Notes under the pieces: model-generated
Seen by the model: only the letters and a program-made list of their open reading frames with translations
Told to the model about the DNA's origin: nothing
The model's database searches: none
Program-made: the position numbers and the translations under genes
Source: an uncultured Methanosarcinales archaeon
GTDB lineage: Archaea > Nanobdellota > Nanobdellia > Woesearchaeales > UBA9642
Direction: 5' to 3'
Length of the DNA stretch: 56,623 nt
NCBI GenBank assembly: GCA_964545585.1
Contig: CAZJFT010000002.1
Coordinates: 1 to 56,623 of the forward strand
Part shown: positions 13,999 to 52,299 of the stretch, piece by piece
Layout of the letters: each line of letters starts with the position of its first letter
Numbering within the stretch: the stretch's first letter is position 1

Positions 13999-14089
13999 TG
14001 CGATAGCCGGGATTCGAACCCGGGTCTCAAGCTCTTTCCATTCTTATAGAATGTGGGAAGCTCGAATTCTGCCGCTATACTACTATCGC
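13999..14089 (-). tRNA. tRNA-Gly(CCC) with an intron of about 20 nt at 37/38
   Basis: Acceptor stem GCGATAG/CTATCGC, T arm CCGGG-TTCGAAT-CCCGG, and anticodon stem CGAGC/GCTTG enclosing TTCCCA + intron + A. Confidence 0.85.
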
Positions 14090-15372: not shown

Positions 15373-16218
15373 ATGGATGTAATGATTGCTGCACAGAAGA
15401 ATGAGATCACTGAGCATCTTATCTATACTGCTCTTGCAAGGAAATCGAAGGATAAACACAATAAAAATGTCCTCGAAGAATTGGCTTCTGATGAATTGAA
15501 GCATTACAACATCCTAAAGAGACATACTAAAGTGGATGTAAAACCGAAGCGTTTCAAGATATGGCTTTATTCTTTCCTTGCATCATTATTCGGGATAGCT
15601 TTCACAATAAGATTGATGGAACGCGGAGAGGAATATGCACAGCAACTTTATTCTGCACAGAAAGATAAGGATTTCAAAGTGTTGCTTGTCGATGAGCATA
15701 AGCATGAGAATAAGCTTATTGATATTTTGAAGGATTCGAAGGTCGAATATGCCGGGTCTATAGTCCTAGGATTGAACGATGCACTGGTTGAGCTTACAGG
15801 AGCATTGGCAGGATTGAGCCTTGCAATCGCTAATGGAAAGCTTATTGCTGTAATAGGAGGCATCACAGGTTTTGCTGCAGCGATGTCCATGGCCGCATCA
15901 TCTTATCTCTCTTCTAAGGAAGAGAAAGACGGCAAGGATGCATTCAAGGGTGCGACATATACTGGTGTAGCATACCTTTTCACTGTCGCACTGCTCATAA
16001 TGCCTTTCATATTCATAAGCAACGTTTTCATGGCGATGGGCATCATGATAATTACGACAATATTGATAATAGCGTTCTACACATTCTATATCTCAACTGC
16101 AAAAAACACGAAATTCTGGCCTAAATTCATAGAAATGGCATTGATATCATTGACCGTCGCTGCGATAAGCTTCATAATAGGATGGATTGTCAGGATGTAT
16201 ATAGGAATTGACACATAA
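15373..16218 (+). CDS. VIT1/CCC1-family Fe/Mn transporter with an N-terminal ferritin-like domain
   Basis: EITEHLIY..DELKHY..DEHKHE (ferritin-like), then GLNDALVELTGALAGLS and C-terminal TM helices. Confidence 0.85.
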   Translation: MDVMIAAQKNEITEHLIYTALARKSKDKHNKNVLEELASDELKHYNILKRHTKVDVKPKRFKIWLYSFLASLFGIAFTIRLMERGEEYAQQLYSAQKDKDFKVLLVDEHKHENKLIDILKDSKVEYAGSIVLGLNDALVELTGALAGLSLAIANGKLIAVIGGITGFAAAMSMAASSYLSSKEEKDGKDAFKGATYTGVAYLFTVALLIMPFIFISNVFMAMGIMIITTILIIAFYTFYISTAKNTKFWPKFIEMALISLTVAAISFIIGWIVRMYIGIDT

Positions 16219-20967: not shown

Positions 20968-21900
20968 TTATTCTTTGTCTGCTGTGAATCGGAATTTTTC
21001 TTTATCATCTTCAATATCATTTTTTTTTGTTTTCTCCGCATAATCGTTCCCATACATCAATCCTAAGACGTACTCTGCCAACCCTTTGGCTTCACTCCTG
21101 TATGGCTCAGGTATTCTGTCTACTATGAATCCTGCGTCTTGGAATCGTCCATGTCCTGCATTATATGATATTATAAGTCTATATTGCTGTGTTTTTCTTG
21201 TTGCTTTCTTATAGTACGGATCATTTGCTTTATGGAATCTATCTAAGAACTGGAGGTGTGAAATCCCGGCGAATGAGTTGTTATGAGGAACATATGCAAG
21301 GGCATCTCTTTTTGAGTAAGGGAGATTAGCAAATTGCGGGAAATAATCATCGAATGTACTCTGCAATGTCTGATATAAGCTCTTTGCGCCTGTCGGACTT
21401 GTTGCCATGTGATCATATGCTGATTCTCCTTTCGGCAAAGATATGGCTAATTCTAATGTTACTGGGCCTGTAGGTTTCAATCCTTGGTACTGTGTGTGCA
21501 TTATTGGGAACATTTTATGGAATCTTTTTTTAAGCGTCTTTGTCGGTGTCAGCTTATTGTAAAGACGTGGCCCTGTCAATTCTATTATCTCATCTATTGT
21601 GTAATCTCTTATATCCATTATAGGTGTGGTTATTTTTGGTCCAGTATACACGTTTTCCAAATTGCCAGAAATAGTATTGCGTTCTATAGGTGAGAATAAT
21701 CCGCTGAAATAATCATCAATAGACTTTGCTGTTTCATCAAAGAATTTTGTAATGTCAAATCCATCTTTTTTTCCTTTTATGTCTTTTGCGTATGAATTAT
21801 TGGGTTTTCCGATGAATGAATTCACTATCATCCAAGTCGTGAATGTACTCAGAACTACATCTTTGACTATACTTTTATTATCTATTTTCTTTTTAGCCAT
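20968..21900 (-). CDS. Lytic transglycosylase (SLT/GH23)-like secreted protein, paralog 1
   Basis: GESAYDHMATSPTGAKSLYQT (the E-S...S..GA..L.Q motif) and SYNAGHG. N-terminal hydrophobic segment followed by NSFIGKPNNSY. Confidence 0.7.
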   Translation of the reverse strand: MAKKKIDNKSIVKDVVLSTFTTWMIVNSFIGKPNNSYAKDIKGKKDGFDITKFFDETAKSIDDYFSGLFSPIERNTISGNLENVYTGPKITTPIMDIRDYTIDEIIELTGPRLYNKLTPTKTLKKRFHKMFPIMHTQYQGLKPTGPVTLELAISLPKGESAYDHMATSPTGAKSLYQTLQSTFDDYFPQFANLPYSKRDALAYVPHNNSFAGISHLQFLDRFHKANDPYYKKATRKTQQYRLIISYNAGHGRFQDAGFIVDRIPEPYRSEAKGLAEYVLGLMYGNDYAEKTKKNDIEDDKEKFRFTADKE

Positions 21901-23093: not shown

Positions 23094-23792
23094 TTAACGA
23101 TTATATTCAGGGATTTCTAAACGCACTATGTTGTTCTGATGCTGGTATGCGTCATATATCCTCATGTCCTCTAAAAGTGTCCTGTTTCTCATTCTACTAA
23201 CATAATCTCTCGTCTCTTTAGGCATCTCATCTATGTTCCATCCTGCTCTCATCAATCTGCCCTGCCCACCATTATATGCTGCATTCATCAGGTCTTGTTT
23301 ATGTTCTATGGGCAATTGGTCGAATCCAGGATAATTCTGCCTCAAGAAAATATCGACCTTATTTATATGATGAAGACTTGCCTTCCCATTCAGCAATGGA
23401 TCATAAGCATTATCGAAATGCGCATTCATGACGTCATTCCATGAGGGCGCCATAATCTGCCATAATCCTCTTGCACCGACTGGACTTGTCGCATTAGGAT
23501 TATCGCCGCTCTCTACATAGCTTCTTGCCATCTGCACAGACATAGGGATGTAATCAGGGACTTTTATATCTGAATATACTTTCTCGATAACATCCATCAA
23601 TTCAGAATAGTCCATGGCTTTAGGCGATTTCTTCTCGATAAATACCGATGCCTTGGGCTTGAATGCGTCTTCGGAGAATATATCTCCATATAAGAATCTT
23701 GAATCATATGATTTGTTCGGACTGCCAGCTAATGAATTCGCCACTAATATGACTAATGCACTGTCCTTCATTAGATTCATCAGCCTTTTCAT
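23094..23792 (-). CDS. Lytic transglycosylase (SLT/GH23)-like secreted protein, paralog 2
   Basis: YVESGDNPNATSPVGARGLWQIM and AAYNGGQGRL. N-terminal hydrophobic segment followed by NSLAGSPNKSY. Confidence 0.8.
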   Translation of the reverse strand: MKRLMNLMKDSALVILVANSLAGSPNKSYDSRFLYGDIFSEDAFKPKASVFIEKKSPKAMDYSELMDVIEKVYSDIKVPDYIPMSVQMARSYVESGDNPNATSPVGARGLWQIMAPSWNDVMNAHFDNAYDPLLNGKASLHHINKVDIFLRQNYPGFDQLPIEHKQDLMNAAYNGGQGRLMRAGWNIDEMPKETRDYVSRMRNRTLLEDMRIYDAYQHQNNIVRLEIPEYNR

Positions 23793-24158: not shown

Positions 24159-27068
24159 ATGGATAGGCGAGAGATAAGAAAAAACGTGTACTCAGTCGGC
24201 GCAATAGATTGGGACAGGAGATATTTCGATGAGATAATATATCTTCCTGATGGCACAAGCTATAATTCTTACCTTATAATAGGAAGCGAAAAGACTGCAC
24301 TGATAGATACCGTCGACCCTACAAAGTCAGATTTGCTCGTCGAGAATCTTGCGGGCATACAAAAGATAGATTACATAATATCCAATCATGCCGAGCAGGA
24401 TCATTCAGGAAGCATACCTTTGATGCTTGAAATGTATCCTATGGCAAAAGTGGTATGCAATGATCTTGACAAGAAGATGCTTATGGATGAGCATGTAATA
24501 GATGAATCCAGATTCATTGTAATCAAGGATTATGAGACCCTTAGCTTAGGCGACAAGACATTACAGTTCATCTTCACCCCATGGGTCCATTGGCCTGAGA
24601 CGATGTGCACATATCTCATTGAGGACAAGATACTGTTCACATGCGATTTCTTCGGAAGCCATTTAGCGACTAGTGAGATGTATGCTGACATGCAATCAAT
24701 ATATCTGCCTGCCAAGAGGTATTATTCTGAGATAATGATGCCATTTGCGAGCATAATAGTAAAAAATCTTGAAAAAGTTAAGAAGCTTGATTTAGATGTC
24801 ATAGCGCCGAGCCATGGTCCAATGTATACTGATCCGAGATATCCTATAGGATTATATGATGATTGGACATCAAAAAATGTGAAGCCTAAGGCCGTAATAA
24901 TATATGTTTCAATGCATGGAAGCACAAGGAAGATGGTGCAATACTTGACCGCGCAACTGATGCGCAAAGGCATGATTGTCGAGGAATATAATGCTTTTGA
25001 TGCTGATGCGGGGAAGATAGCGATGGATCTTATCGACGCATCCACATTGATTGTTGCAAGCCCATCATTTCTTGGGGGATTGCATCCGAAGATAGCATCA
25101 ATAGTGTATCTTGCGAACTCATTGCATCCTAAGACAAGGATATTGGCATACATGGGCTCTTACGAGTGGGGCAGCAGTGTCATTGAACAAATAAAACAGA
25201 TGACGAGCAATTTCAATGCCCAAATGATAGACCCATTCCAGGTCAAGGGATTGATGAAACAGGACAAATATGGAATGATGGATGCATTCGCAGATTCTAT
25301 AATACAAAAAAATCTTGACCAAGGGATACTCAAAAAAGATGTCCATCATGAATCAATCCCCTATATCAAAGATGTGAAGATAGTCTTATGTGGAGAAGCA
25401 GGACAAGGAATTGATTCCATATCCGACTTCTTGACCAAATTGTTCAAAGATGAAGGATATAATATTTTTGCTACAAAAGAATACATGTCAAGAGTCCGCG
25501 GAGGAGAAAATTCTACAACTATACGGATAAGCTCGAGGCCTGTAGAAGGATACAGTGACAGCATAGACATCCTCATCCCATTGGACAAGGGAGCCATCGG
25601 GCACTTATCGAATAGGATATCAGAAAATACCATAATCATAGGAGACAAGTCGACAATCAATGATGTCCAGAAGAGTAAGTACAGGTTCTTTGACGTCCCG
25701 ATAATAGATATCGCATCGAGGACTGGTGCAAAGATATTCGCTAATACTGTGGCTGCAGGCGTAATCCTTGGGATGTTCAATGCAGATATAGAAAGATTCA
25801 ATGTGCTCTTAAGGAATAAATTTTCTGACAAACCACAGGATGTTATTGAAAAGAATATCACTGCAGCAAAAAGAGGATATGATGAGGGCCGAAGGATAAT
25901 CAGTGAGCATAAAGAACTGCTTGAAATGACACGAATAGACAAGGATCCTTCAGTCCATGACCAGATGCTGATGTATGGCGCTGAAAGCATCGGTCTTGGA
26001 GCGATCGCTGGCGGATGCAATTTCATCTCTGCATACCCTATGTCTCCATCGACAGGAGTATTGTCATATCTAGCATCTAAGAAAGATGATTTTGGCATAA
26101 TAGTAGAACAGGCAGAAGATGAGATATCAGCAATAAACATGGCCATCGGCGCATGGTATGCTGGCGCAAGGGCTATCGCTAACAGTTCAGGCGGAGGATT
26201 CGCACTCATGACAGAGGGGGTCAGTCTTGCAGGGATGATAGAGAGCCCATTAGTGATACACATTGCGCAAAGACCGGGTCCTGCTACAGGACTTCCCACC
26301 AGAACAGCTCAAGAGGATCTGGAATTAGCATTATATGCAGGGCATGGAGAATTCTGCAGGATAATATACGCTCCAGGGAATGCATTGCAAGGGTTTTATT
26401 TGACTCAAAAAGCATTCAATATGGCAGCAAAATATCAGATTCCGGTATTTGTATTGACCGACCAATACTTCATGGACACATTGCATAACGTTGCACCGAT
26501 TGATGTAAACGGGATAGTCGTCGAGGAACATATAATTGAGACTCCTGAAGTGTATCAAAGATATAAGATGACTGACAATGGGATAACACCAAGAGGAATT
26601 CCGGGATACGGGAAAGGATTTGTATGTGTAGATAGCGATGAGCATGATGAATCAGGCCATATAACAGAGAGCATGGATGTCAGGAATATCATGATGGAAA
26701 AGAGACATAAGCGATATGATGCATTAGTTGAAGAATCATTGATGCCTTCCATGTTTGGAGGAGAAAATTATTCCATCCTCATAATCAGTTGGGGCACCAC
26801 ATTTGGAAGCGTCAAGGAGGCTGTGCAGAAGATTGACAGGAACGATATCATGTATATGCATTTCTCCCAAGTCTATCCTTTACATCCGAAGACTGCTTCA
26901 TGGATTAGGAAAGCGAGAAAGACTATTGTCGTAGAGAACAATTCTACAGGACAATTCTCTAAACTTATAAGGAGAGAGACAGGGTTGGATACTTATAAGA
27001 TACTGAAAGATGATGGGATGCCTTTCAGTGTCGAAGAATTGATGGGAAAGATATTGAAAATGGCATGA
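24159..27068 (+). CDS. Fusion protein: flavodiiron protein (metallo-beta-lactamase + flavodoxin domains) joined to the 2-oxoacid:ferredoxin oxidoreductase gamma-alpha (KorA-type) subunit
   Basis: Residues 1-395 carry NHAEQDH, WVHW, CDFFGSH, APSHG and IIYVSMHGSTRKM. Residues 405-969 carry KIVLCGEAGQG, RVRGGE, SAYPMSPSTG and GGGFALMTEG. Single uninterrupted frame. Confidence 0.85.
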   Translation: MDRREIRKNVYSVGAIDWDRRYFDEIIYLPDGTSYNSYLIIGSEKTALIDTVDPTKSDLLVENLAGIQKIDYIISNHAEQDHSGSIPLMLEMYPMAKVVCNDLDKKMLMDEHVIDESRFIVIKDYETLSLGDKTLQFIFTPWVHWPETMCTYLIEDKILFTCDFFGSHLATSEMYADMQSIYLPAKRYYSEIMMPFASIIVKNLEKVKKLDLDVIAPSHGPMYTDPRYPIGLYDDWTSKNVKPKAVIIYVSMHGSTRKMVQYLTAQLMRKGMIVEEYNAFDADAGKIAMDLIDASTLIVASPSFLGGLHPKIASIVYLANSLHPKTRILAYMGSYEWGSSVIEQIKQMTSNFNAQMIDPFQVKGLMKQDKYGMMDAFADSIIQKNLDQGILKKDVHHESIPYIKDVKIVLCGEAGQGIDSISDFLTKLFKDEGYNIFATKEYMSRVRGGENSTTIRISSRPVEGYSDSIDILIPLDKGAIGHLSNRISENTIIIGDKSTINDVQKSKYRFFDVPIIDIASRTGAKIFANTVAAGVILGMFNADIERFNVLLRNKFSDKPQDVIEKNITAAKRGYDEGRRIISEHKELLEMTRIDKDPSVHDQMLMYGAESIGLGAIAGGCNFISAYPMSPSTGVLSYLASKKDDFGIIVEQAEDEISAINMAIGAWYAGARAIANSSGGGFALMTEGVSLAGMIESPLVIHIAQRPGPATGLPTRTAQEDLELALYAGHGEFCRIIYAPGNALQGFYLTQKAFNMAAKYQIPVFVLTDQYFMDTLHNVAPIDVNGIVVEEHIIETPEVYQRYKMTDNGITPRGIPGYGKGFVCVDSDEHDESGHITESMDVRNIMMEKRHKRYDALVEESLMPSMFGGENYSILIISWGTTFGSVKEAVQKIDRNDIMYMHFSQVYPLHPKTASWIRKARKTIVVENNSTGQFSKLIRRETGLDTYKILKDDGMPFSVEELMGKILKMA

Positions 27069-27090
27069 TGAGGAGTGTTGAACAGATAAA

Positions 27091-28632
27091 ATGACATTTG
27101 AGATCGATCATAAGGATATAGCATGGTGTCCTGGATGCGGGAATTTCAGCATCATCGCGATAGTTAAGAAAGCATTGGAAGAGCTGGCGCTTGACCCGAA
27201 GAATGTTGTTCTAGTCTCAGGCATCGGGCAGGCAGCGAAGCTTCCACAGTACTTGAATACTAATTATTTCAATGGATTGCATGGGAGGGCGCTCCCCCCA
27301 GCGACTGCTATAAAAGTAGCCAACCCGAACCTTCAAGTCATAGTCACTAGCGGTGACGGTGATATGTATGGTGAAGGTGGGAATCATTTCATACATGCTA
27401 TAAGAAGAAATCCTAACATCACAGTCATTGTGCATAATAATATGGTGTATGGTCTGACGAAAGGACAGGCAAGCCCGACGAGCCAGAAAGGCATGAAGAC
27501 CCCTGTGCAGATATCTGGAGTATTCCTTGAGCCATTCAATCCTATTGCCGTGGCTGTAGCGCTTGATGCATCATTCGTCGCCAGGACTACAGTGAATGAC
27601 TTGGAGCATGCAAAAGATATAGTGAAGAAAGCAATATTGCATAAAGGATTTGCTTTGGTGGACATATTCCAGCCTTGCGTCACATTCAATAAAATAAATA
27701 CATATGACTGGTACAAGGAGCATTCTTATTATCTTGAGAATGAATTCGATCCTCATAATAAGGGATGGGCATTCGCTAAGGCAATAGAGACTGAGAAGAT
27801 GCCGTTAGGGATAATATATCTCAATGAGAAGCCAGTGTTTGATGAAATGATAGGCACTTATGATAATGATAAGAATCCGTTGTTCAAGAGGAAACTTGAC
27901 AGGGAGAAATTGAAATCATTAATCGGCAAGAAGAACATTTTTGCTGTAAGAGTCATCAGCATAAATAAAGAGACTCATGATGTTTTCACGATAACTACAG
28001 AGAAGCCATTCTCATTCATCCCAGGCCAGTATGTTATGATAGGTAATGGAAAGAATATAAACAAGAAGGATTCCATACCTATAACTATAGCCAGTTCTCC
28101 TGAAGAGAGCGTATTAAGATTCACCATAAAAGATTTAGGAGGATACAGCAGGGAACTCATCAATTCCAAGCCCGGGGACATATTCACTATAAGCAGGCCT
28201 GTCGGCGAATCATACAATTTTGATGTAGCAAAAAATTATGTCATGCTATCTGGAGGCTCAGGCGTAACACCATTCCTAAGCATACTTCGGCACGTCAAAG
28301 ACACAGGTTTGAAGAATAATATAATAGTGATAAACAGCAACTGCTCATACAATGACATAATATGCAGGGAGGAGCTTGATGCATTAAGCAAGGACAATAT
28401 CTATATAATGAATGCACTTGACAGATATGATGATGAGTGGAAAGGGGAGAGAGGATACATCAATAAGGACATGATACTTCGTTACGTCAATAAGGATAGG
28501 CTTAATGAGTATACATGGATGCTGTGCGGACCTCCAGGAATGGTTAATTCTCTAGAGAAGACATTGAAGGAACTCGGAGTGAAGGATATAAGGAGAGATA
28601 ATTGGGAGATAGCAGCGAAGTGCGAGAGATGA
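27091..28632 (+). CDS. Fusion protein: OFOR beta (KorB-type TPP/[4Fe-4S]) subunit joined to a ferredoxin-NADP-reductase-like FAD/NAD(P)-binding module
   Basis: Residues 1-280 carry [31 protein letters not shown] and FQPCVTFN. Residues 285-513 carry [18 protein letters not shown] and LCGPPGM. Confidence 0.85.
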
Positions 28633-28657
28633 TAAATCTCAATTAATAGAATATTTC

Positions 28658-28912
28658 TTAGAATCGTATCTTTACCGTGCCAGATTTTATCTTGCATTGG
28701 CACATAGACCTGTAATTGCCGTCAAAATTGAGCTCTAATTCGCGGTCGTTCTTCGGCTCAAGATTTTCCATGCCCTCAACGACCTCTACCTTGCACGTGC
28801 CGCACACACCCTGCCTGCATCCGAAAGGCACGCCTAACTCTTCTGCAGCATTCATTGTTGGTGAGCCATCTGGAAGCTCGACCTCTTTGCTATCAGTTTT
28901 TAGTATTGCCAT
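28658..28912 (-). CDS. Plant-type [2Fe-2S] ferredoxin (84 aa)
   Basis: C32-x4-C37-x2-C40 ... C71 (GCRQGVCGTCKV ... SMCQC). Confidence 0.85.
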   Translation of the reverse strand: MAILKTDSKEVELPDGSPTMNAAEELGVPFGCRQGVCGTCKVEVVEGMENLEPKNDRELELNFDGNYRSMCQCKIKSGTVKIRF

Positions 28913-31135: not shown

Positions 31136-31254
31136 TGTGGGTGGCGAGATTTGAACTCGCGACTTCCACGTTACCCAATTCATTGCCCATTGCTGGACTC
31201 ATCGCTCAAAGCGTTTATGAGCGTGGCAATCTAACCAGGCTGAGTTACACCCAC
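31136..31254 (-). tRNA. tRNA with a CAT anticodon (elongator Met or Ile2) and an intron of about 44 nt at 37/38
   Basis: Acceptor GTGGGTG/CACCCAC, anticodon stem CCACG/CGTGG enclosing CTCATA + intron + A, T arm GCGAG-TTCAAAT-CTCGC. Confidence 0.8.
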
Positions 31255-43670: not shown

Positions 43671-45662
43671 TTATTCTATGAACATCTCATGTATCAATTC
43701 TATATAAGTGGCAATACTCCATGCCTGGCAGAAACACCCTCCTGGTTCAAGCCGTGATATGCTCGACAATTCAGAAGAGTATCCGATGAATCCTTTGAAA
43801 AGCATATCCTCTGTCGATGCGTCAAGCATCCTCTTTATGTATGGAAAATATTTCTCCTTGTTAAGACGATGAAGACATATCGCAGCGATGTTATTCACAT
43901 AGAACCATGAATCTCCACGATGATAGCTCCTGTTATCCTGTCCAGTATAATTAGGTTGATAGAGATGATTATCCTTGTCTATTGTGGACAATCCTCCTCC
44001 CGAACTTTCACTGTTAGCCTTTCCTTCTTTGTCAATTGTCCTATCTATATCCCACCCATTCCATAATCTTGGTAGTGCATTGTCGAATGCTAATCCCCAT
44101 TCTTCATGCTTCAAAAGCTCAGGATATAAGTAATATGCAAGGAATATGTTAGGTCTTGTTATGTCTGCATTGTTGCAGTTCCATCCATCATTCAAGTAAC
44201 CATTCACCAAGAAACGTTCACGCACCAGCATGGCAGTCTCACGCTCAAGCTTCCTGTAATCCAACTCCGTATCTGTGATGTTTATAAGTTTATCATGCTT
44301 TTTCACGAACTTGTTCGCGAGCAGATGGTTCAACAGGTTCATAAGATTCAGCATGCACAAGAATGCGCATTGTATCTCTATCCTGAACCCTTCACGCACG
44401 TCCCCTCCATAATCTGTGTCCATCCACGTCTCAAGGGCATCATTGTGTATTAATCCATCGACATAGTGATTGTTCATCAACTGCCTTATCGCAAAATTCA
44501 GCCTTTCACGTATGTATTTGAGTTCGTACAGGCTGAAATAGTTTAAATCTGCATCCTGCTCTTCAAGAAGCAGCACGATATCCTTTATCCTCCTGAAGAG
44601 CCAACCTACAGAATCTGCACTCCCTAATCCGGAAGGGCCATCTTTTGTGTATATGTTTGGTAATCGTCCATTAGGCATTATTGAGTTGATATGCCTTTCG
44701 ATAACTTCTTTGACGAATTCTTTTTTTCCCTCTAGGATCAATGCCTTCAATGATAATAGCTCATCTCTTGACCAGTACTGGAAGAACCAGGGCAGGCCCG
44801 CCCATAATCCATTCAATGCTACTGATCTTATCATCAATCCATCTATTGCATGCAATGCATTGACATATCCGAAAGCGAATTCCTTCCCTGAAACCTGCGA
44901 TATAGCATATTTCATCCCTAGATGTTTTTCAGAGTATGATTCATGTATATCGCTTATAAGTGAGGCATTCTTCTTTACGTCCATAAGCTTGCCCAATGCA
45001 TCTGCCTTGCTATCTGCGAATGAGAATATAAGACGTGTCTTGCTCTTGGATGATAATCGCAATGCATGATATACATAGAATTCTGACCGCGAATTCCTTG
45101 AGCGATCATAGCCGTACTCCTTTCTTATCCATTTCGATGGCAATTCATAATGCTCTCCCATACCCCCTATAACCATGTATTTGGAGTAAGATTTGTCCTT
45201 GAGGGAATTATCCTTATACTTATTATAGTCTATCATCAACGAATCATCTATCTTATGTATCCTGTATTCCCTGCCTTTATCATCATAATCATGTATCCAC
45301 CTGAAATCAAGCTCTACGTCTATGCTTATATCATCCTGTGATTCGACGTCATATATCAGCCCGTTCTTGACGAGCGTGAATTTCTCATAATACCCGTCAT
45401 ATAATCTCTCGACATAATTGAAACCGTTCACTATCTCATAAGGCACTTTCTTGCCGGAATCTCCTGAAAGATATATGTTATCTATAGTCTTGAACATCAT
45501 CCCATCTATGTTCAATAAGTATCCGGAATAATTACTTATTGAATGCTGCGGATTTGCAGGTATAGAAAAATAATTGCCCAACTTGCTCAACAGGAAGATG
45601 GAAAGATTCCTATCATCACATTCCTTAGAAAAATTTTCCGACAACGTATGTGTTACTTTCAT
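43671..45662 (-). CDS. Amylo-alpha-1,6-glucosidase (GDE_C/GH133-like glycogen debranching enzyme)
   Basis: 663 aa. (alpha/alpha)6-type C-terminal region ending ...GCFCQAWSIATYIEL. Confidence 0.75.
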   Translation of the reverse strand: MKVTHTLSENFSKECDDRNLSIFLLSKLGNYFSIPANPQHSISNYSGYLLNIDGMMFKTIDNIYLSGDSGKKVPYEIVNGFNYVERLYDGYYEKFTLVKNGLIYDVESQDDISIDVELDFRWIHDYDDKGREYRIHKIDDSLMIDYNKYKDNSLKDKSYSKYMVIGGMGEHYELPSKWIRKEYGYDRSRNSRSEFYVYHALRLSSKSKTRLIFSFADSKADALGKLMDVKKNASLISDIHESYSEKHLGMKYAISQVSGKEFAFGYVNALHAIDGLMIRSVALNGLWAGLPWFFQYWSRDELLSLKALILEGKKEFVKEVIERHINSIMPNGRLPNIYTKDGPSGLGSADSVGWLFRRIKDIVLLLEEQDADLNYFSLYELKYIRERLNFAIRQLMNNHYVDGLIHNDALETWMDTDYGGDVREGFRIEIQCAFLCMLNLMNLLNHLLANKFVKKHDKLINITDTELDYRKLERETAMLVRERFLVNGYLNDGWNCNNADITRPNIFLAYYLYPELLKHEEWGLAFDNALPRLWNGWDIDRTIDKEGKANSESSGGGLSTIDKDNHLYQPNYTGQDNRSYHRGDSWFYVNNIAAICLHRLNKEKYFPYIKRMLDASTEDMLFKGFIGYSSELSSISRLEPGGCFCQAWSIATYIELIHEMFIE

Positions 45663-45676
45663 GATATGATTCTCGC

Positions 45677-46684
45677 CTAAGAATTATCCTCATAATTCTC
45701 ATGCATCTGAGAGCTCGCTCCAAGATTTATCTTCTTGAAGCCGCCATTCATCACAGAATCCTGTCCTATAGTCGAATCTTTAATGTTGACTGAGTTTAGT
45801 CGTGCATTATCATCTATTATGCTGTTGCTCACTATGCTGTCCTTTATCACTGCACCAGGCGCTATTGAGACGAATGGCCCTATCACAGAATTTTCTATAA
45901 CAACATTCTTGTCTATCGATACAGGATTTATTATCACTGAATTCTTTGCCTTGGATTTTATCTCATGATCCTTCTTGAGCAACACACGGTTTGTCTCCAA
46001 CAATGTCTCGAATGTTCCGCAGTCCAGCCATTGCTTCACTTCTGGTGCATAGAATCTTTTTCCTGACTTTACCATCAATGCCAAAGCATCCGTGAAGAAA
46101 TATTCATTGTTAAGCATTATCTTATTCTCGAACAGGTATTCTATCGCCCTGAACATTGCCCATGAATCCTTTACATAATACATCCCTATGTTAGCAAGCT
46201 TGGATATTGGCTCTTTAGGTTTCTCGACCATCTGTGTTATAACTCCATTAGCATCAGTCACTACCACTCCGAACCTCTGATAATCCTCGACTTCCCTGAC
46301 CCATATCAATCCGTCAACATTCTTATCGCTTATCGCTTTCTTGAATTTCTTGAAGTCTATATCGAACAATGTGTCTGAGAACAATACTATGACGTCCTCA
46401 TTGACATATTCTTTTGCAAGATAGACTGCTGCACCATGACCATTCATCTTTTCCTGTGGTATGAATCTCGTCTTGAAAGGGTATTTTTCCTTGACGAACT
46501 GCTCAATCTTCTCTTTCATCGGACCAGTTATGAATATGACTTCAGAGAATTTTACAGGCTTGAAACTGTCAAGTATGTGCTGAAGTATTGGCTTGCCTGC
46601 AACATTGAGCAATGGTTTAGGTTTAGTGTACGTATGAGGTCTTAGTCTCGATCCATATCCTGCCAGCGGTATTATAAGTTTCAT
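45677..46684 (-). CDS. Sugar-1-phosphate nucleotidylyltransferase with a C-terminal left-handed beta-helix
   Basis: MKLIIPLAGYGSRLRPHTYTKPKPLL. GGAGG RBS upstream of the ATG at 46684. Hexapeptide-like repeats in the C-terminus. Confidence 0.88.
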   Translation of the reverse strand: MKLIIPLAGYGSRLRPHTYTKPKPLLNVAGKPILQHILDSFKPVKFSEVIFITGPMKEKIEQFVKEKYPFKTRFIPQEKMNGHGAAVYLAKEYVNEDVIVLFSDTLFDIDFKKFKKAISDKNVDGLIWVREVEDYQRFGVVVTDANGVITQMVEKPKEPISKLANIGMYYVKDSWAMFRAIEYLFENKIMLNNEYFFTDALALMVKSGKRFYAPEVKQWLDCGTFETLLETNRVLLKKDHEIKSKAKNSVIINPVSIDKNVVIENSVIGPFVSIAPGAVIKDSIVSNSIIDDNARLNSVNIKDSTIGQDSVMNGGFKKINLGASSQMHENYEDNS

Positions 46685-46698
46685 TATACTCCTCCGTA

Positions 46699-48477
46699 TT
46701 ATTGTTTTACCCTCTCTACAGCCATATTGTGTGCATTCAGATAATTCTGTATGAGCAATTCCCAATCTGCATATCCTGACAATGATTTCGCTTTCAGCTT
46801 GCAATTGACCCTGTCTGAATGTTCCATATTCAAGAACCTAATAAGGACATTGCAGAAGTCATTCACTACTTCACTTTCCGGCCTCTTGAAACGCTCCAAC
46901 ACCATTATTCCTTTATTCTCTGGATTCTGCGTCTTTATGTAACGGCCGAACCCAGACATATCAGTGGTCAAAGACGGCACTCCTAGAGCTGCGCTCTCCA
47001 GAGGCGTATACCCCCATGGCTCATAATAGCTGGGGAATAGTCCAAGATGGCATCCTATCATTACATCATAATGCGTGAGATCTATGAATCCATCCATGCC
47101 ATCAAGATATACTGGCTCTATTATAACTTTGACAGGATCCTCTTTCCTATTCAACAGGCCATTCTCTCTCAATGCGACTATAACAGGATTGTTCTCATCC
47201 ATGTTATGTGTAGATAGTGGCGGTTCGCCCTCTCTGGAGAATGCGACTATGTCTTTCTTTATTTCTTTTACGAATGACTCAGTGAATAATTCTCCAACCT
47301 GGTCCTTCTTCGATATGAAATCATAAGTTATCTTCTTTAGTATCTCCGGACTATTTGTGAACACATAATTCTTTATATGCATGTAATAATTCTTGTTCTC
47401 CAGGACATCTAATCTTATGCCGTACTGTTGCATCGGCACCCAGAATATCATCGACAATGTCTTTCCACTCTTCTCATTCTTTAAGCGCTGGTTCAACATG
47501 CCTAATGATTTTATTATAAGGTCATATCCCTTGTTTCGGTATTCGAATCTTCCGACGGTGTAAGCTATCAAATTATGGTTCACGTCGAAAGTATAATATG
47601 GGAAAAAATAATAAGTCAAGAACTCACGTATCTTATCTCTAGACGTGATGTGTTTTATGCTGACCTCTTCAAAACTAGGAAATTTCTCCAGGTCCAAACC
47701 ATTCAACACGAGTACATCAGGTTTTCTTCCTAAGAATCTTTCAGACTCTATGCCGGTTATCTCAGATACTGTCGTGAATACATGTGCATTCTTAGCAGTA
47801 GCAGATTCTGTATGGTGCTTTGCTTCTATGTTATTTAAGTATATCTCATAGCCGATGTTTATGCTCTCGAGATAGCCATATATATCTACACCTTTTGAGC
47901 TTAGTGTTCTTCCTAGCACTGTGGCGTGTGTAGTGAACACTGTGGCCACATCAGGACAATACTTCCGTAGATACAATAGTCCGAATCCTGATAGCCATTC
48001 ATGGAAATGCCCGACTATCCTCTTGTCTTTCAATGCATTCCTCTGCAGCTTCTCTATCAACATCCCGACTGCATAAGACCATATCGATGGTTCTTCAAAG
48101 TCCCATCCTGCACGTATAGAATCTATTTTGTAGTATTCCCAGAATTTTCCTTTTATCTCGTTTTTTCTTGCAAGAAGCCCGTTCGATTCTATTAGTATAG
48201 TGTATGGTTTGCCTTTTATCTCGAGCCACTTGCCATAATGGCATATCACTCCCTCATTTCTCAATTCATCGAATACTTTCTTGAAATCTTCTGGAGGATC
48301 CATAGATACGAAGTCGACCTTGACATTGTGTTCAAAATATGGGCCTACCAAGAAATAATTCTTATATAATCGCATCATCTCAGATGATTTGCTTTTTATG
48401 ACTGTATATATCCCGCCTACTTTGTTGCATACTTCCCATGATACTTCAAAAACATAATCTGCTTTCACTTCTTCCAT
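46699..48477 (-). CDS. Glycogen synthase, GT3 (animal/fungal-type) family
   Basis: YVFEVSWEVCNKVGGIYTVIKSK..NYFLVGPY closely parallels the N-terminus of eukaryotic glycogen synthase (FEVAWEVANKVGGIYTV...YFLVGPY). Confidence 0.85.
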   Translation of the reverse strand: MEEVKADYVFEVSWEVCNKVGGIYTVIKSKSSEMMRLYKNYFLVGPYFEHNVKVDFVSMDPPEDFKKVFDELRNEGVICHYGKWLEIKGKPYTILIESNGLLARKNEIKGKFWEYYKIDSIRAGWDFEEPSIWSYAVGMLIEKLQRNALKDKRIVGHFHEWLSGFGLLYLRKYCPDVATVFTTHATVLGRTLSSKGVDIYGYLESINIGYEIYLNNIEAKHHTESATAKNAHVFTTVSEITGIESERFLGRKPDVLVLNGLDLEKFPSFEEVSIKHITSRDKIREFLTYYFFPYYTFDVNHNLIAYTVGRFEYRNKGYDLIIKSLGMLNQRLKNEKSGKTLSMIFWVPMQQYGIRLDVLENKNYYMHIKNYVFTNSPEILKKITYDFISKKDQVGELFTESFVKEIKKDIVAFSREGEPPLSTHNMDENNPVIVALRENGLLNRKEDPVKVIIEPVYLDGMDGFIDLTHYDVMIGCHLGLFPSYYEPWGYTPLESAALGVPSLTTDMSGFGRYIKTQNPENKGIMVLERFKRPESEVVNDFCNVLIRFLNMEHSDRVNCKLKAKSLSGYADWELLIQNYLNAHNMAVERVKQ

Positions 48478-48556
48478 TTTTATTTCTTCCTCGTCTGCAT
48501 AAATTTTTATCCAATAAAAAAATTATTTTTTATTATACGAATTATGCAAATTTATT

Positions 48557-49249
48557 TTATAATACGAATTTATATACGATGATTGCAATTATTGCAAATA
48601 TCACAATACAGTAAAGCAATATCCAAGAGATATTTCCTCCGGTAATGGTGCTTGTGCCATTTTTGGCATCACTGGCAACATGCTTTCTCTTATTGAATTG
48701 ATACCATTTCCTTAATGGATTGTTATTATTTTTATCTTTGTCCGGTCCATTATTTATCTCTTTAATCTCTTTATATGTATGGACTTCAGGCAGTTTCTTT
48801 GAATCCTCCACCTTATCTTTCCTTCTGAACCATCTCTTCTTTTCTGGAGCAGGGAGCATCTCATGATGTCCGGGTTCTGGAAGTTTCTCTATAGGCTTCC
48901 TGACTTCAACAAAAGGATTCTTTTCAACAGGACTTAATATTTTTAACAAAGATTTCTTTCCATTCGAAGCATCATTCAATGATGATCTAGAACTATTCTC
49001 AATTTTTATCTTGTTGCTTATGAGCTCTTTAGTCTTCGGAAATAAGATGGTCGATCGTAATGATGAAGCAAGTTCCTTGTCTAGGAGCACGTATTCTATC
49101 CAATTAGCGAAATCATTCTTGCTTGTATTGACGAACCTCTCGAAATCCTGCTGTCCGATATTCTCAAGCATTGAAGAAAGCTCCAATAGGTTCTTTGCTC
49201 TTCTCCCATCATGGAATACGAACTCCTTCTCATAAGGAGCATTTATCAT
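48557..49249 (-). CDS. Tail-anchored protein carrying the NDFANW domain (paralog A)
   Basis: EFVFHDGRRAKNLLELSSMLENIGQQDFERFVNTSKNDFANWIEYVL. C-terminal TM helix. GGGGTGAG RBS precedes the chosen start. Confidence 0.6.
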   Translation of the reverse strand: MINAPYEKEFVFHDGRRAKNLLELSSMLENIGQQDFERFVNTSKNDFANWIEYVLLDKELASSLRSTILFPKTKELISNKIKIENSSRSSLNDASNGKKSLLKILSPVEKNPFVEVRKPIEKLPEPGHHEMLPAPEKKRWFRRKDKVEDSKKLPEVHTYKEIKEINNGPDKDKNNNNPLRKWYQFNKRKHVASDAKNGTSTITGGNISWILLYCIVIFAIIAIIVYKFVL

Positions 49250-49322
49250 TCTCTCACCCCTTTTTTTACACAAAAATAATTAAAATCGATGTAAAAAAAA
49301 AATTAATCTATTAAAGTCGATA

Positions 49323-49673
49323 TCATTCGCATAATCCTTCAAGCTTATGGAACAGATGTTTGTATAATAATGCCATCATCTCATGCCTAGACTTGGAGTG
49401 CCTTATTCTCTCTGCAAGCTCCTCCTCCCCAAATACGTCTCTGACCCAATTGGCGAAGTCGTTTCTCTCACTAGTGACATGATAATAGAACACATCATCT
49501 CCCACAGTCTCAAGCAGGGCGGCCAACTCCTTATAGTCCTTTATAGTGTTGCCATTACATAAGACAAAATATTTTTCTGGAGAAAGCTCGATGAATATCG
49601 ACTTCTTCTTAGCAGTCTTCTTTATTTTAGGTTCTTTTACTTCTGTTGTCGTTCCGGCCTTTTTCCTTGGCAT
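49323..49673 (-). CDS. Small protein carrying the NDFANW domain (paralog B)
   Basis: YFVLCNGNTIKDYKELAALLETVGDDVFYYHVTSERNDFANWVRDVF. AGAGGTGAG RBS. Confidence 0.6.
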   Translation of the reverse strand: MPRKKAGTTTEVKEPKIKKTAKKKSIFIELSPEKYFVLCNGNTIKDYKELAALLETVGDDVFYYHVTSERNDFANWVRDVFGEEELAERIRHSKSRHEMMALLYKHLFHKLEGLCE

Positions 49674-49732
49674 AAGCTCACCTCTTTAATGAAAAACAGT
49701 TTTCTGATTTTTTCCAATTATTGACTATCATT

Positions 49733-50992
49733 TCAATTGTTGATTATCAATGTCGGCTTGTCTGTTATCTGATGCTTTTTCTTCATCTCATAAAGCATGT
49801 TCCGGTCTTGCAATATCGTCTTTATACGTATTATGATATCATTCATTATGTTCATGAAATTTATGTATGACTCGTATGGCGTTTCGTATGGACTGAAATA
49901 CTTGTGCACGTCTCCATCGTTGAAGTATTTTGTGCACATATAATAGAAATGATCTGAAGTGGTCAATTTCCTCCAATCCTCTAGAAGCCTCTTGTCGTTT
50001 ATCTCCTTAACATGTTTCTCCAGCATATATATTTCATTCAATGCCGAATCCTGCATGCTATTGCCTCTCCATGCGCTCAAATCTCGCTCGACATCTGCCC
50101 AGCTCATGAAATTATGTATGTCGAGCTCTGCAACCGGTTCATAATCCGCAAGTTCTGATGGTGTCAAGAATTTGGTGTGCGGATTCTTGAACAATTGCTC
50201 CGGAAGATGGCTTAAGAACCTGAATATCCCCGTATCTTCCCATTGGTGCTCGCCGAATGTCTCATAATCCATGAATAGGTTCACTGAATGCCCAGCATTG
50301 TTATGTATCCAATGCGCAAACTTCTCCGCAGTCAATGGATGATCCTTCCAAGATTTCTGTCCGAACCTGAATGCGACGTCATCGCTCAGCTTATAGTTCT
50401 TCAGCAATAGTTTTATGTTCCCTGCAGTCTTTGCTGTATACACATAATTAGGACTCCTCCAATCAAGAACATGGTCTGCCCCTTCTGCAAGTATCGCCTT
50501 ATAACCCATGTCCTGTACGGTGTTTGCAAGCTCATTGTTGAATATCAATTCTGTATTCCTGAAAACCTTCGGCTCCTGACCGAATAATTCTTTTATCATC
50601 TCTGCATGAAGTTTTACCTGCTCTTTGAACTCATGTTTGCTGTACAGATATGACAATGAATGATAATATGTCTCCGAAAGGAATTCCACATTCCCCGTAT
50701 CTGCAAGCTTTTGGAAACTATGCAATGTCTCTGGACTGTATTTCTTGAATTGTTCTAGCGCAGTCCCTGTTATACTGTATGATATCTTGAACTGCCTGTC
50801 TTTGTTCTTGTACTTGTTTATCAATTCGAGCATTAGTTTGTTTGTCGGCAGATAGCATTTCTTTGCTACCTTATGCAATATTTCCATATTCTTGTGCTCA
50901 TCAAAATAGTTAGAATTATGTCCTACATCGAATATCCTATATCTTGCCATTCTGTATGGTTGATGCACCTGGAAATAAAAGCATACGTTCAT
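49733..50992 (-). CDS. Glycoside hydrolase family 57 (alpha-amylase / branching-enzyme-like)
   Basis: MNVCFYFQVHQPYR and ETFGEHQWE. GGTGAG precedes the ATG at 50992. Confidence 0.85.
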   Translation of the reverse strand: MNVCFYFQVHQPYRMARYRIFDVGHNSNYFDEHKNMEILHKVAKKCYLPTNKLMLELINKYKNKDRQFKISYSITGTALEQFKKYSPETLHSFQKLADTGNVEFLSETYYHSLSYLYSKHEFKEQVKLHAEMIKELFGQEPKVFRNTELIFNNELANTVQDMGYKAILAEGADHVLDWRSPNYVYTAKTAGNIKLLLKNYKLSDDVAFRFGQKSWKDHPLTAEKFAHWIHNNAGHSVNLFMDYETFGEHQWEDTGIFRFLSHLPEQLFKNPHTKFLTPSELADYEPVAELDIHNFMSWADVERDLSAWRGNSMQDSALNEIYMLEKHVKEINDKRLLEDWRKLTTSDHFYYMCTKYFNDGDVHKYFSPYETPYESYINFMNIMNDIIIRIKTILQDRNMLYEMKKKHQITDKPTLIINN

Positions 50993-51003
50993 TTTATTCT
51001 CAC

Positions 51004-52299
51004 CTACCAATGTCCTCCATGTCTCACTTTTACAGCCAAAGGCATCAATCTATGGTATAGGTCTATGCATTTCTGTGCCGGGACGTCCCATGTCAATGTT
51101 TTTGCTTCCTGATATCCTCTGTTTGTCAGTTCTATATGTAATGGACTGTAATTGAGCAGTGCAAGTATCTTGTTCGCCATCTCATCAGTGTCCCAGAAAT
51201 CTACTTTTAGTGTGTGATTTAGCACTTCTGAAACTCCTGACTGTTTGCTCACTATTGTCGGCGTACGTTTCATCATTGCCTCTAATGGCACTACACCGAA
51301 TGGCTCTGATACTGATGGCATAACGAATACGTCCGCCATCGAATAGAATTTTTCAGCATCCTCTCTAGTATAGAATCCGTGGAATATGAATTTGTCCGCT
51401 ATACCTAAGTGTGCCGCAAGGTCTATCATCCTGTTCAGCATGTCTCCTGACCCTGCCATTATGAATTTGACATCATCCCTATACTCGCACACCTTCTTTG
51501 CTGCATGTACAAAATACTCGGGCCCTTTCTGCAGCGTCACCCTTCCTGCAAACAGGACTATCTTGTTGTATTTCTTGATGTCTGAGATGTAATCCATGCC
51601 TTCATCCATCTCAATGTTCGCGTTGTGTACGACAAATATTTTTTCTGCAGGTATCCCATAATGGGATATGCACATGTTCTTTATAAGATTACTGACGACA
51701 ATGATGCCGTCTGCTTTCTGCATCCCTAATTTTTCAATCTCATATAGCTGTTGGTTCACCCCTGCACCGCCTGATTTGTTGAACTCCGTTATATGCACAT
51801 GAACAACTAATGGCTTTCCGGTCAATTCCTTCAAGGCTATTGCTGCAGGGAATGTTGTCCAGTCATGTGCATGTATTATGTCGAAATCCTCTTCCATGGC
51901 TAGCAGTTTTACTTTCTCTGCAAACCTATAGACCTCTTGGAGAAGATTCGCGCCATATAGCTTGAACGTGTTATCCTTGCCTACTGTTGAGTCTCCTTCT
52001 TTCATACCTAATTGTTTGAGCTCCAATTGTTTAAGCTGTTGCATATACTCTTCTGGACTCATGTATGCACTAAGAAGCGAGCTTATCTTTCTCACTTGTA
52101 TCCTTGAATTAGGTATGAGGTTGTCTGCTGCAAGAAGCCTTACATGACCAGAATGCAGATCTTTAGGACCATATGGCATGACATATGTCACTTGTATATC
52201 ATTTCTTTTAGAAAAAGCCTTTGTCAATTCATAGCAGACCATCCCTACCCCGCCTGCGAAGAATGGAGGGAACTCCCAGCCTAGCATAAGTACTTTCAA
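51004..52299 (-). CDS. Glycogen synthase / glycosyltransferase (archaeal GT5/GT4-type, GT-B fold)
   Basis: MKVLMLGWEFPPFFAGGVG and SEPFGVVPLEAM. Apparent TTG start 4 nt after GAGGTGA. Confidence 0.85.
   Translation of the reverse strand: MKVLMLGWEFPPFFAGGVGMVCYELTKAFSKRNDIQVTYVMPYGPKDLHSGHVRLLAADNLIPNSRIQVRKISSLLSAYMSPEEYMQQLKQLELKQLGMKEGDSTVGKDNTFKLYGANLLQEVYRFAEKVKLLAMEEDFDIIHAHDWTTFPAAIALKELTGKPLVVHVHITEFNKSGGAGVNQQLYEIEKLGMQKADGIIVVSNLIKNMCISHYGIPAEKIFVVHNANIEMDEGMDYISDIKKYNKIVLFAGRVTLQKGPEYFVHAAKKVCEYRDDVKFIMAGSGDMLNRMIDLAAHLGIADKFIFHGFYTREDAEKFYSMADVFVMPSVSEPFGVVPLEAMMKRTPTIVSKQSGVSEVLNHTLKVDFWDTDEMANKILALLNYSPLHIELTNRGYQEAKTLTWDVPAQKCIDLYHRLMPLAVKVRHGGHW

Follow-up and report, generated by a model that had tools for sequence, protein, structure and literature searches.

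The stretch of DNA analysed here, called the window below, comprises positions 1 to 56,623 of contig CAZJFT010000002.1 (assembly GCA_964545585.1). At 24159-28912 it carries three genes that combine a flavodiiron protein (FDP), a two-subunit 2-oxoacid:ferredoxin oxidoreductase (OFOR; subunits KorA and KorB), a module resembling ferredoxin-NADP reductase (FNR) and a plant-type 2Fe-2S ferredoxin (Fer2). Gene 1 (24159..27068, + strand) is a single unbroken open reading frame (ORF) of 969 aa. Gene 2 (27091..28632, + strand; 513 aa) starts 22 nt past the stop of gene 1, and gene 3 (28658..28912, − strand; 84 aa) is convergent, 25 nt beyond the stop of gene 2. A first-pass annotation made from the sequence had described this locus as an FDP-OFOR fusion with an FNR-fused beta subunit. 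The long frame of gene 1, the gap to gene 2 and the convergent ferredoxin gene were all present as it described them, and the motifs that it listed (the diiron ligands, IIYVSMHGSTRKM, GGSGVTP and CGPPGM) were each found in place. Pfam profiles gave the same domain order: ODP/Lactamase_B, Flavodoxin (weak), POR and POR_N in gene 1; TPP_enzyme_C, PFO_beta_C, FAD_binding_8 (weak) and NAD_binding_1 in gene 2; and Fer2 in gene 3. With domain E-values from 1e-26 to 1e-188 and an ORF of 969 aa, chance is no concern.

The N-terminal half of gene 1 has two hallmarks of the FDP family, the diiron ligand set and a flavodoxin-like FMN domain directly after it. Residues 1-235 (24159..24863, + strand) form a metallo-beta-lactamase-like diiron domain (ODP, 92 bits, and Lactamase_B, 45 bits; residues 33-220) with the ligands H77-x-E79-x-D81-H82, H144 (WVHWP), D163 (TCDFFG) and H219 (APSHG). 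Residues 236-395 (24864..25343, + strand) are the FMN domain, which contains IIYVSMHGSTRKM at residues 247-259. The Pfam Flavodoxin match (246-363) is weak and below the cutoff; the domain is assigned from its motifs, its modelled fold and the alignment to solved FDPs, which runs on through it to residues 344-381. In a PDB sequence search, residues 1-404 matched Moorella FprA (1ycf, E=4e-62) and the methanogen F420H2 oxidase (2ohh, E=9e-60), and the ligands of gene 1 align with the ligand motifs of both. The modelled FDP half superimposes on solved FDPs with TMt 0.84-0.90. Diiron ligands and FMN-site motifs are conserved at no less than 90% among 20 fused homologs, which keep SMHGST(R/K)KM and SxEWG in the flavodoxin domain. 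A scan of GTDB genomes with the FDP-domain alignment places the domain in a widespread class-A subfamily that is present in many anaerobic bacteria and archaea; the matches listed were class-A FDPs, 51-58% identical, and one fused locus, L014. The Pfam label ODP also raised the possibility of an oxygen sensor. This was rejected, as solved FDPs matched at E=1e-62 and ODPs at 1e-7, and the flavodoxin domain is present.

After a flexible linker (residues 396-412; 25344..25394, + strand), the rest of gene 1 (residues 413-969 and stop; 25395..27068, + strand) is a KorA-type OFOR alpha subunit. It has the composition of the alpha subunit of a two-subunit OFOR, a gamma-like POR domain (414-575, 112 bits) followed by a POR_N/alpha domain (614-846, 175 bits). 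The NCBIfam model TIGR03710 (2-oxoacid:acceptor oxidoreductase alpha) covers residues 405-965 with 625 bits (cutoff 483), the fold matches the alpha subunit of MmOGOR (6n2n_A, TMt 0.86), and unfused KorA proteins are 55-59% identical to this part.

Residues 1-270 of gene 2 (27091..27900, + strand) are a KorB-type OFOR beta subunit that binds thiamine pyrophosphate (TPP). The NCBIfam model PRK11869 (OFOR beta) matches residues 5-282 with 476 bits (cutoff 438), 5b46_B is matched at E=1e-69, and the TPP/Mg-binding motif is present as GDGD (88-91). Three of the four canonical [4Fe-4S] cysteines are kept (C13, C16 and C196). The third is replaced by Gln47 in SGIGQ (residues 43-47, window 27217-27231), where the solved KorB structures 5b46, 5b48, 6n2n and 8ys5 have SGIGC and all four cysteines. 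SGIGQ occurs in 120 of the 120 nearest KorB homologs (P0121-P0240), unfused bacterial ones included, and in 59 of 103 unfused KorB homologs the total number of cysteines is three. A large OFOR clade with a putative three-cysteine KorB cluster site is exposed by this comparison.

The remainder of gene 2 (residues 271-513 and stop; 27901..28632, + strand) consists of a short linker and the FNR-like module, with a flavin barrel and an NAD(P)-binding domain. The latter is a Rossmann domain with the GGxGxxP and CGP motifs of the FNR superfamily (GGSGVTP at 388-394, CGPPGM at 479-484; NAD_binding_1, 70 bits). The flavin side is less canonical, FAD_binding_8 scoring only 24 bits. IPITIAS stands at residues 329-335 (window 28075-28095), where FNR-type proteins carry RxY(S/T); the Arg and the Tyr are both replaced clade-wide, with the consensus IPxT. 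The GxxS motif is present (GGYS, 350-353). An AlphaFold2 (AF2) model of the module has the barrel fold at a predicted local distance difference test score (pLDDT) above 90 and resembles cytochrome b5 reductase, NqrF and BenC. BenC, MmoC, PaaE and Hcr are among its NCBIfam matches. The module is 46% identical to the FNR half of an FDP-FNR fusion protein, P0241, and a word-indexed search with the FNR module alone as the query found free-standing relatives in DPANN archaea.

Two further observations concern the FNR-containing proteins. Where Fer2 is not part of the chain, proteins of the KorB-FNR and FDP-FNR types have a short C-terminal tail in which a cysteine is conserved (window 28615-28629); the tails AAKCER, ASKCEK, PGKCDITK, GRCER, CGN and TCCAR were seen in the window protein, P0122-P0124, P0127, P0241 and the KorB-FNR of L009. 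The L009 gene (8928-10496), from the metagenome-assembled genome (MAG) GCA_053576955.1, has a TTG start and a real ORF of 522 aa, which gene calling had cut to a 232-aa 'ferredoxin--NADP reductase' (P0390).

Gene 3 encodes Fer2 (Pfam Fer2, 51 bits, cutoff 21), the candidate electron carrier of the system. Its [2Fe-2S] ligands C32, C37, C40 and C71 (C-x4-C-x2-C ... C) are invariant in 10 sequences.

Conservation of the fusions and their linkers

The FDP-KorA fusion was found in ~20 clusters (90% identity clustering), which are 44-86% identical to the window protein, derive from NCBI, JGI, ENA and Logan assemblies and belong mostly to Woesearchaeota/Nanoarchaeota. The KorB-FNR fusion recurs likewise, with conserved synteny, and the synteny of the window is shared with Woesearchaeota MAGs. 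Recurrence in related genomes, a point raised by the first-pass annotation, is therefore established, and both fusions are real and conserved: they come from independent assemblies, and their modules are under purifying selection. When the FDP domain was run exhaustively with HMMER against 1.8 billion cluster representatives, the fused family came down to only two of them at 50% identity, P0009 and P0020, so that, judged by its sequences, it is a rare but deep family.

Selection differs between modules and linker. In comparison with close relatives, the FDP-KorA linker (15-17 codons) is near-neutral, with a ratio of nonsynonymous to synonymous substitution rates (dN/dS) of 0.7-0.9, while every other module is under purifying selection, with a proportion of nonsynonymous differences (pN) of 0.07-0.2 and a saturated proportion of synonymous ones (pS). 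For the diiron domain compared with L092 the values are pN 0.07 and pS 0.69. The linker also varies in length, from ~17 residues in the window to ~220 among homologs; in P0008, P0016, P0017 and P0019-P0021 it has ~60-220 residues and is acidic and of low complexity. The AF2 model of gene 1 is confident for the FDP and KorA halves, falls below pLDDT 50 at residues 394-401 and has a predicted TM-score (pTM) of 0.57; the pTM of the gene 2 model is 0.53. In a fold search, neither protein had a solved counterpart that spans its two halves; the highest TMq was 0.52 with gene 1 and 0.46 with gene 2. Given the disordered linker, the low pTM and the lack of a two-half solved structure, we read the FDP and FNR modules of these models as tethered, probably not docked rigidly. 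The 'hard-wired' complex that had been envisaged for this locus is not supported by the same data, namely a linker that is nearly neutral, disordered in the model and about tenfold variable in length, and pTM values of 0.53-0.57.

An association of OFOR with FDP also exists without fusion. When 80 loci with an FDP of the class-A subfamily were examined for neighbours, a bacterial locus, L041 (609-5608), was found to encode rubrerythrin, KorA, KorB, FDP and flavodoxin in this order on one strand. At L011 (5992-12202) the FDP gene lies close to KorA-rubrerythrin-KorB, and at L018 it lies close to KorAB. L103 has the order Fer2-KorA-KorB on one strand. The OFOR-FDP link thus appears, from these gene orders, to predate the fusion.

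Proposed electron carrier and pathway

The locus had been thought to work independently of a ferredoxin. This view is unlikely to hold, for all 13 of the 13 distinct FDP-KorA loci examined have a 2Fe-2S ferredoxin, either as a neighbouring gene or as a fused domain. The Fer2 gene is convergent and downstream in the window, L001, L008, L009 and L092; it is divergent and upstream in L014, L130, L131 and L132; and it is fused, as KorB-FNR-Fer2, in L003, L005, L007 and L010. The fused form is found in distant relatives, whose KorB-FNR proteins carry Fer2 at the C-terminus (P0129-P0132 and P0134-P0136; 631-715 aa), and the free 84-aa ferredoxins are collinear with the fused Fer2 domains and 52-64% identical to them. 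By its distribution Fer2 looks like an obligatory carrier.

Natural variants of the locus bear on the electron pathway. The window and most loci have the FDP fused to KorA, a complete OFOR, the FNR on KorB, and Fer2. L008 and L096-098 have the FDP-KorA fusion, a plain 283-aa KorB without FNR, and Fer2. At L091 the FDP is fused directly to the FNR (P0241, 135-2491), the OFOR is absent and Fer2 is divergent. The halves of P0241 are 55% identical to FDP-KorA and 50% identical to KorB-FNR of L014, and its FNR shares the unusual motif (NIPLTIASSP), so that L091 looks like an in-frame deletion of KorA and KorB. L004 has the OFOR, neither FDP nor Fer2, and a decayed FNR whose flavin barrel is gone and whose motifs are degenerate (ADSG, SGPF). 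Its KorA nests within the fused clade; this lineage has lost the FDP and Fer2. Throughout the sample, FDP and Fer2 always co-occur, and OFOR and FNR are each dispensable. Such a pattern is expected if Fer2 reduces the FDP directly and OFOR and FNR are alternative reductases of Fer2.

We therefore give a slightly better than even chance to the reading that the products of the three genes work together as a single modular redox system, in which Fer2 feeds the FDP and receives its own electrons either from the oxidation of a 2-oxoacid or from NAD(P)H. A 2-oxoacid, probably pyruvate, would be oxidised with CoA at the TPP site to the acyl-CoA, and the iron-sulfur cluster of KorB would pass the electrons to Fer2, a one-electron hub. 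Fer2 could alternatively be reduced by NAD(P)H via the FNR flavin. From Fer2 the electrons would pass to the FMN of the FDP tethered to KorA and on to its diiron site, where O2 would be reduced to water or NO to N2O. When O2 is absent, electrons could run from the 2-oxoacid through Fer2 and FNR to NAD(P)+, an electron sink like that of pyruvate:NADP+ oxidoreductase (PNO). The potentials are approximately -500 mV for the 2-oxoacid couple, -400 mV for 2Fe-2S ferredoxins, -320 mV for NAD(P) and +820 mV for O2, so all the proposed steps would be downhill. The likely benefits are an O2 scavenger tethered beside an O2-labile enzyme and a soluble outlet for low-potential electrons in a cell without a respiratory chain. 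For the FNR, the role first assigned to it, an output of the OFOR, is kept as a part; input of NAD(P)H to the FDP is probably at least as much of its function, because at L091 the same FDP and FNR clades are directly fused, with Fer2 alongside and no OFOR.

Several points weigh against this modular system. We infer every electron-transfer step, for all members of the family, from sequence. The losses (of FNR, of OFOR, and of FDP with Fer2) were each seen in a single lineage, and L091 is a single contig. Most genes of the Fer2 clade stand at loci, many in number, with no FDP or OFOR inside 8 kb, and Fer2 may perhaps be a general-purpose carrier with several partners. In short-linker forms such as the window protein, direct transfer from [4Fe-4S] to FMN is possible. 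With three KorB cluster cysteines, the nature and potential of the cluster are uncertain, as is flavin binding by an FNR module with no canonical RxY(S/T). At a pTM of 0.53-0.57, the AF2 models do not fix the arrangement of the domains with confidence. Lastly, the sequence does not reveal whether the FDP prefers O2 or NO; second-sphere residues, at the positions D52 and S262 of the E. coli protein, which we take to be perhaps D53 and H253 in gene 1, were judged unreliable and were not used for this purpose.

Other explanations were weighed against the same evidence. The system could be mainly a PNO-like 2-oxoacid:NAD(P)+ oxidoreductase, working via Fer2 and FNR in fermentative redox balance, the FDP doing no more than guarding against O2 locally and seldom carrying metabolic flux. 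This would agree with the commonest form of the family, the KorB-FNR(-Fer2) fusion, with the downhill course from 2-oxoacid to NAD(P)+, with the precedent of PNO, an OFOR fused to an NADP reductase, and with the genes for 2-hydroxyacid dehydrogenase or malic enzyme that adjoin the operon in L005, L007 and L010. However, in L004, which retains the OFOR, loss of the FDP was accompanied by FNR decay and loss of Fer2; in L091, which lost the OFOR, the FDP has kept both FNR and Fer2; and FNR is wholly absent at L008-type loci. In these variants FNR and Fer2 follow the FDP more closely than they follow the OFOR, and we consider a mainly PNO-like function unlikely.

Direct wiring, with a rigid ferredoxin-independent (alpha-beta)2 complex in which the KorB [4Fe-4S] cluster reduces both the FDP FMN and the FNR flavin and the Fer2 gene is incidental, is quite unlikely. 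The short linker of the window protein would suit it, as would the spacing of the genes, 22 nt apart here and overlapping in relatives. FDP and OFOR are both obligate dimers, so their co-assembly is conceivable. Nevertheless, a rigid complex is hard to reconcile with Fer2 at every FDP-KorA locus and its covalent fusion in the distant ones, with a near-neutral linker of roughly tenfold variable length, with models that lack defined inter-domain packing, and with the FDP-FNR protein of L091, which retains Fer2 without an OFOR.

Very unlikely, in our view, is a scheme in which FNR and Fer2 are the sole, NAD(P)H-dependent chain to the FDP, the OFOR being co-localised for protection or co-regulation and using another ferredoxin. 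An FDP-FNR unit with Fer2 and without OFOR does exist, other FDP-FNR (P0243) and FDP-Fer2-FNR (P0321) fusions occur, and FNR-Fer2 proteins are the classical reductases of diiron enzymes, as seen in the NCBIfam matches. But the OFOR is the only visible donor at the L008-type loci without FNR, the covalent FDP-KorA bond is kept across a divergence as deep as 44% identity, and unfused KorAB-FDP operons are found in bacteria. That the fusions are an artefact of assembly or frameshift, or a decaying pseudogene, can for practical purposes be dismissed even though the window is one metagenomic contig, since the same fused ORFs occur in ~20 independent clusters with conserved synteny and without internal stops, and pN lies far under pS in all domains.

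A further and more doubtful reading is that the system does more than detoxify and is a soluble, membrane-independent terminal oxidase pathway, leading from 2-oxoacid oxidation through a dedicated 2Fe-2S ferredoxin to the reduction of O2 to water by four electrons. Ultra-small DPANN archaea that have no respiratory chain would then use O2 as an electron sink for the production of acetyl-CoA, and hence for substrate-level ATP, with a reversible NAD(P)(H) port balancing the redox state. If so, the FDP would belong to a new class and the OFOR to a new physiological type, and the persistence of 'fermentative' DPANN in habitats that are oxic or sunlit would be easier to understand.

Gene neighbourhoods

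The neighbours of the archaeal operons include genes for peroxiredoxin, a thioredoxin reductase (TrxR)-like reductase, Ogg/HhH-GPD glycosylases and photolyases, and the bacterial operons at L041 and L011 connect KorAB of this type with rubrerythrin, another oxidative-stress protein. The oxidative-stress role that had been proposed for the locus is backed by these neighbours. In three loci without a nearby FDP or OFOR, a 1-Cys peroxiredoxin gene directly follows the Fer2-clade gene (L099, 7986-8850; L100, 2934-3894; L101, 8001-8850). Two photolyase-family genes lie beside the operon at L131 (7970-10891), and an O2-dependent acyl-ACP-desaturase-like gene (FA_desaturase_2) lies beside the FDP-less operon of L004 (9186-10241). 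Photolyases and desaturase alike give a hint of exposure to light and oxygen in these archaea.

Other genes of the window concern metabolism and cell biology. A cluster for glycogen metabolism at 43671-52299 (− strand) encodes a debranching enzyme (GDE_C), glycogen synthase, a GH57 protein and a GT4/starch-synthase-like enzyme, and is a likely source of the pyruvate for the OFOR. At 15373-16218 (+ strand) a rubrerythrin/ferritin-like N-terminus and a VIT1 iron-transporter domain are joined in one protein. Two proteins with an SLT (lytic transglycosylase) domain are encoded at 20968-21900 (− strand) and 23094-23792 (− strand). The second of these genes is directly upstream of FDP-KorA and is syntenic in L001, L004 and L009; the SLT proteins may be peptidoglycan-degrading enzymes of a DPANN episymbiont. 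The window also encodes archaeal L10P and L1 ribosomal proteins and two long, probably intron-containing tRNA genes, one of 119 nt (31136-31254, − strand), which was found by Rfam and missed by ARAGORN, and one of 91 nt (13999-14089, − strand). Intron-containing tRNAs, the ribosomal proteins and the synteny with Woesearchaeota MAGs mark the host as an archaeon, one of the DPANN group and Woesearchaeota-like.

Comparison with known systems

The described FDP classes A-H have the core alone or the core with C-terminal rubredoxin, short rubredoxin, NADH:rubredoxin oxidoreductase (NROR) or flavin-reductase-like domains (PMC6033852, PMC9364112). Gene 1 fits none of them, its C-terminal extension being POR and POR_N (KorA), and the earlier suggestion that its architecture lies outside these classes was confirmed against both papers (PMC6033852, PMC9364112). 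Further FDP fusions beyond classes A-H were also noticed, namely P0241 (FDP-FNR), P0243 (a second FDP-FNR type) and P0321 (FDP-Fer2-FNR). Among the papers of the library searched, no publication was found linking flavodiiron proteins to these archaea or to korA; papers on DPANN genomics treat korA and korB as ordinary OFOR genes and leave FDP unmentioned. The domain architecture is genuine and conserved, and apparently undescribed.

The described multidomain FDPs have only rubredoxin, NROR and flavin-reductase modules and obtain electrons from NAD(P)H, F420H2 or rubredoxin. The KorA fusion would be the first FDP system with a primary metabolic electron source built in, and would extend the FDP classification. 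To the OFOR field it would offer a natural answer to oxygen sensitivity and to the electron-acceptor problem, and to DPANN biology a concrete mechanism for oxygen tolerance and redox balancing in minimal genomes. Its modular variants, with or without FNR, with or without OFOR, and with Fer2 free or fused, would serve as a natural deletion series for the electron pathway.

The modules themselves are familiar, and so is the logic of an FDP fused to its own electron supply. In class F FDPs (Clostridioides difficile CD1623 and Trichomonas vaginalis FDPF) the FDP core is likewise joined covalently to its own electron chain, an iron-sulfur carrier and a pyridine-nucleotide flavoreductase, which gives a self-sufficient water-forming oxidase (PMC6033852, PMC9364112). 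Class F is a single chain with short rubredoxin and NROR, a flavoprotein with two dinucleotide-binding domains, and NADH as the sole donor. In the window, by contrast, the C-terminal partner is KorA, a subunit of a catabolic TPP enzyme, the carrier is a 2Fe-2S ferredoxin, the flavoreductase is of the FNR type, and the components are divided among two or three polypeptides. The FDP of Stygiella incarcerata carries a C-terminal ferredoxin domain, so that here too a ferredoxin, the presumed donor, is genetically joined to the FDP system (PMC4989108). That ferredoxin sits on the FDP itself, the protein is eukaryotic, and it has no OFOR or FNR fusion.

The window system resembles PNO of Euglena and Cryptosporidium in joining a pyridine-nucleotide flavoreductase to a 2-oxoacid oxidoreductase, which makes a free ferredoxin pool unnecessary. 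PNO differs in being one chain, composed of pyruvate:ferredoxin oxidoreductase (PFOR) and an FMN+FAD module of the NADPH-cytochrome P450 reductase type, without an oxygen-reducing domain. The window system has the fusion on the beta subunit of a two-subunit OFOR, an FNR-only module with no flavodoxin domain on the gene 2 chain, and an added 2Fe-2S ferredoxin. By this domain composition it is not a member of the PNO family, although it may work like PNO.

A close functional parallel may be the hydrogenosome of Trichomonas. Smutna et al. reportedly found in 2009 that its FDP is reduced from pyruvate or NADH through a [2Fe-2S] ferredoxin. This chain runs from PFOR or NADH dehydrogenase to the [2Fe-2S] ferredoxin, the FDP and O2, with the logic proposed here; it differs in that separate proteins of a eukaryotic organelle are involved and that PFOR is a homodimeric single-chain enzyme with its own ferredoxin domain.

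On the side of the OFOR, StOFOR of Sulfolobus tokodaii (5b46/5b48) and MmOGOR of Magnetococcus (6n2n) have the same alpha (gamma+alpha)/beta layout, the same TPP motif, one cluster site, located in the beta subunit, and no delta ferredoxin subunit. Both have four cluster cysteines and no extra domains, whereas the window clade has Gln for the third Cys and carries the FDP and FNR extensions. Finally, BenC, MmoC, PaaE and Hcr, reductases that serve diiron oxygenases, Rieske oxygenases or the hybrid-cluster protein, likewise combine an FNR-like flavin/NAD module with a plant-type 2Fe-2S domain, which feeds electrons one at a time to an enzyme with a diiron or other metal centre. In the window the module is on KorB, its flavin motif is non-canonical, and the presumed acceptor is the FDP.

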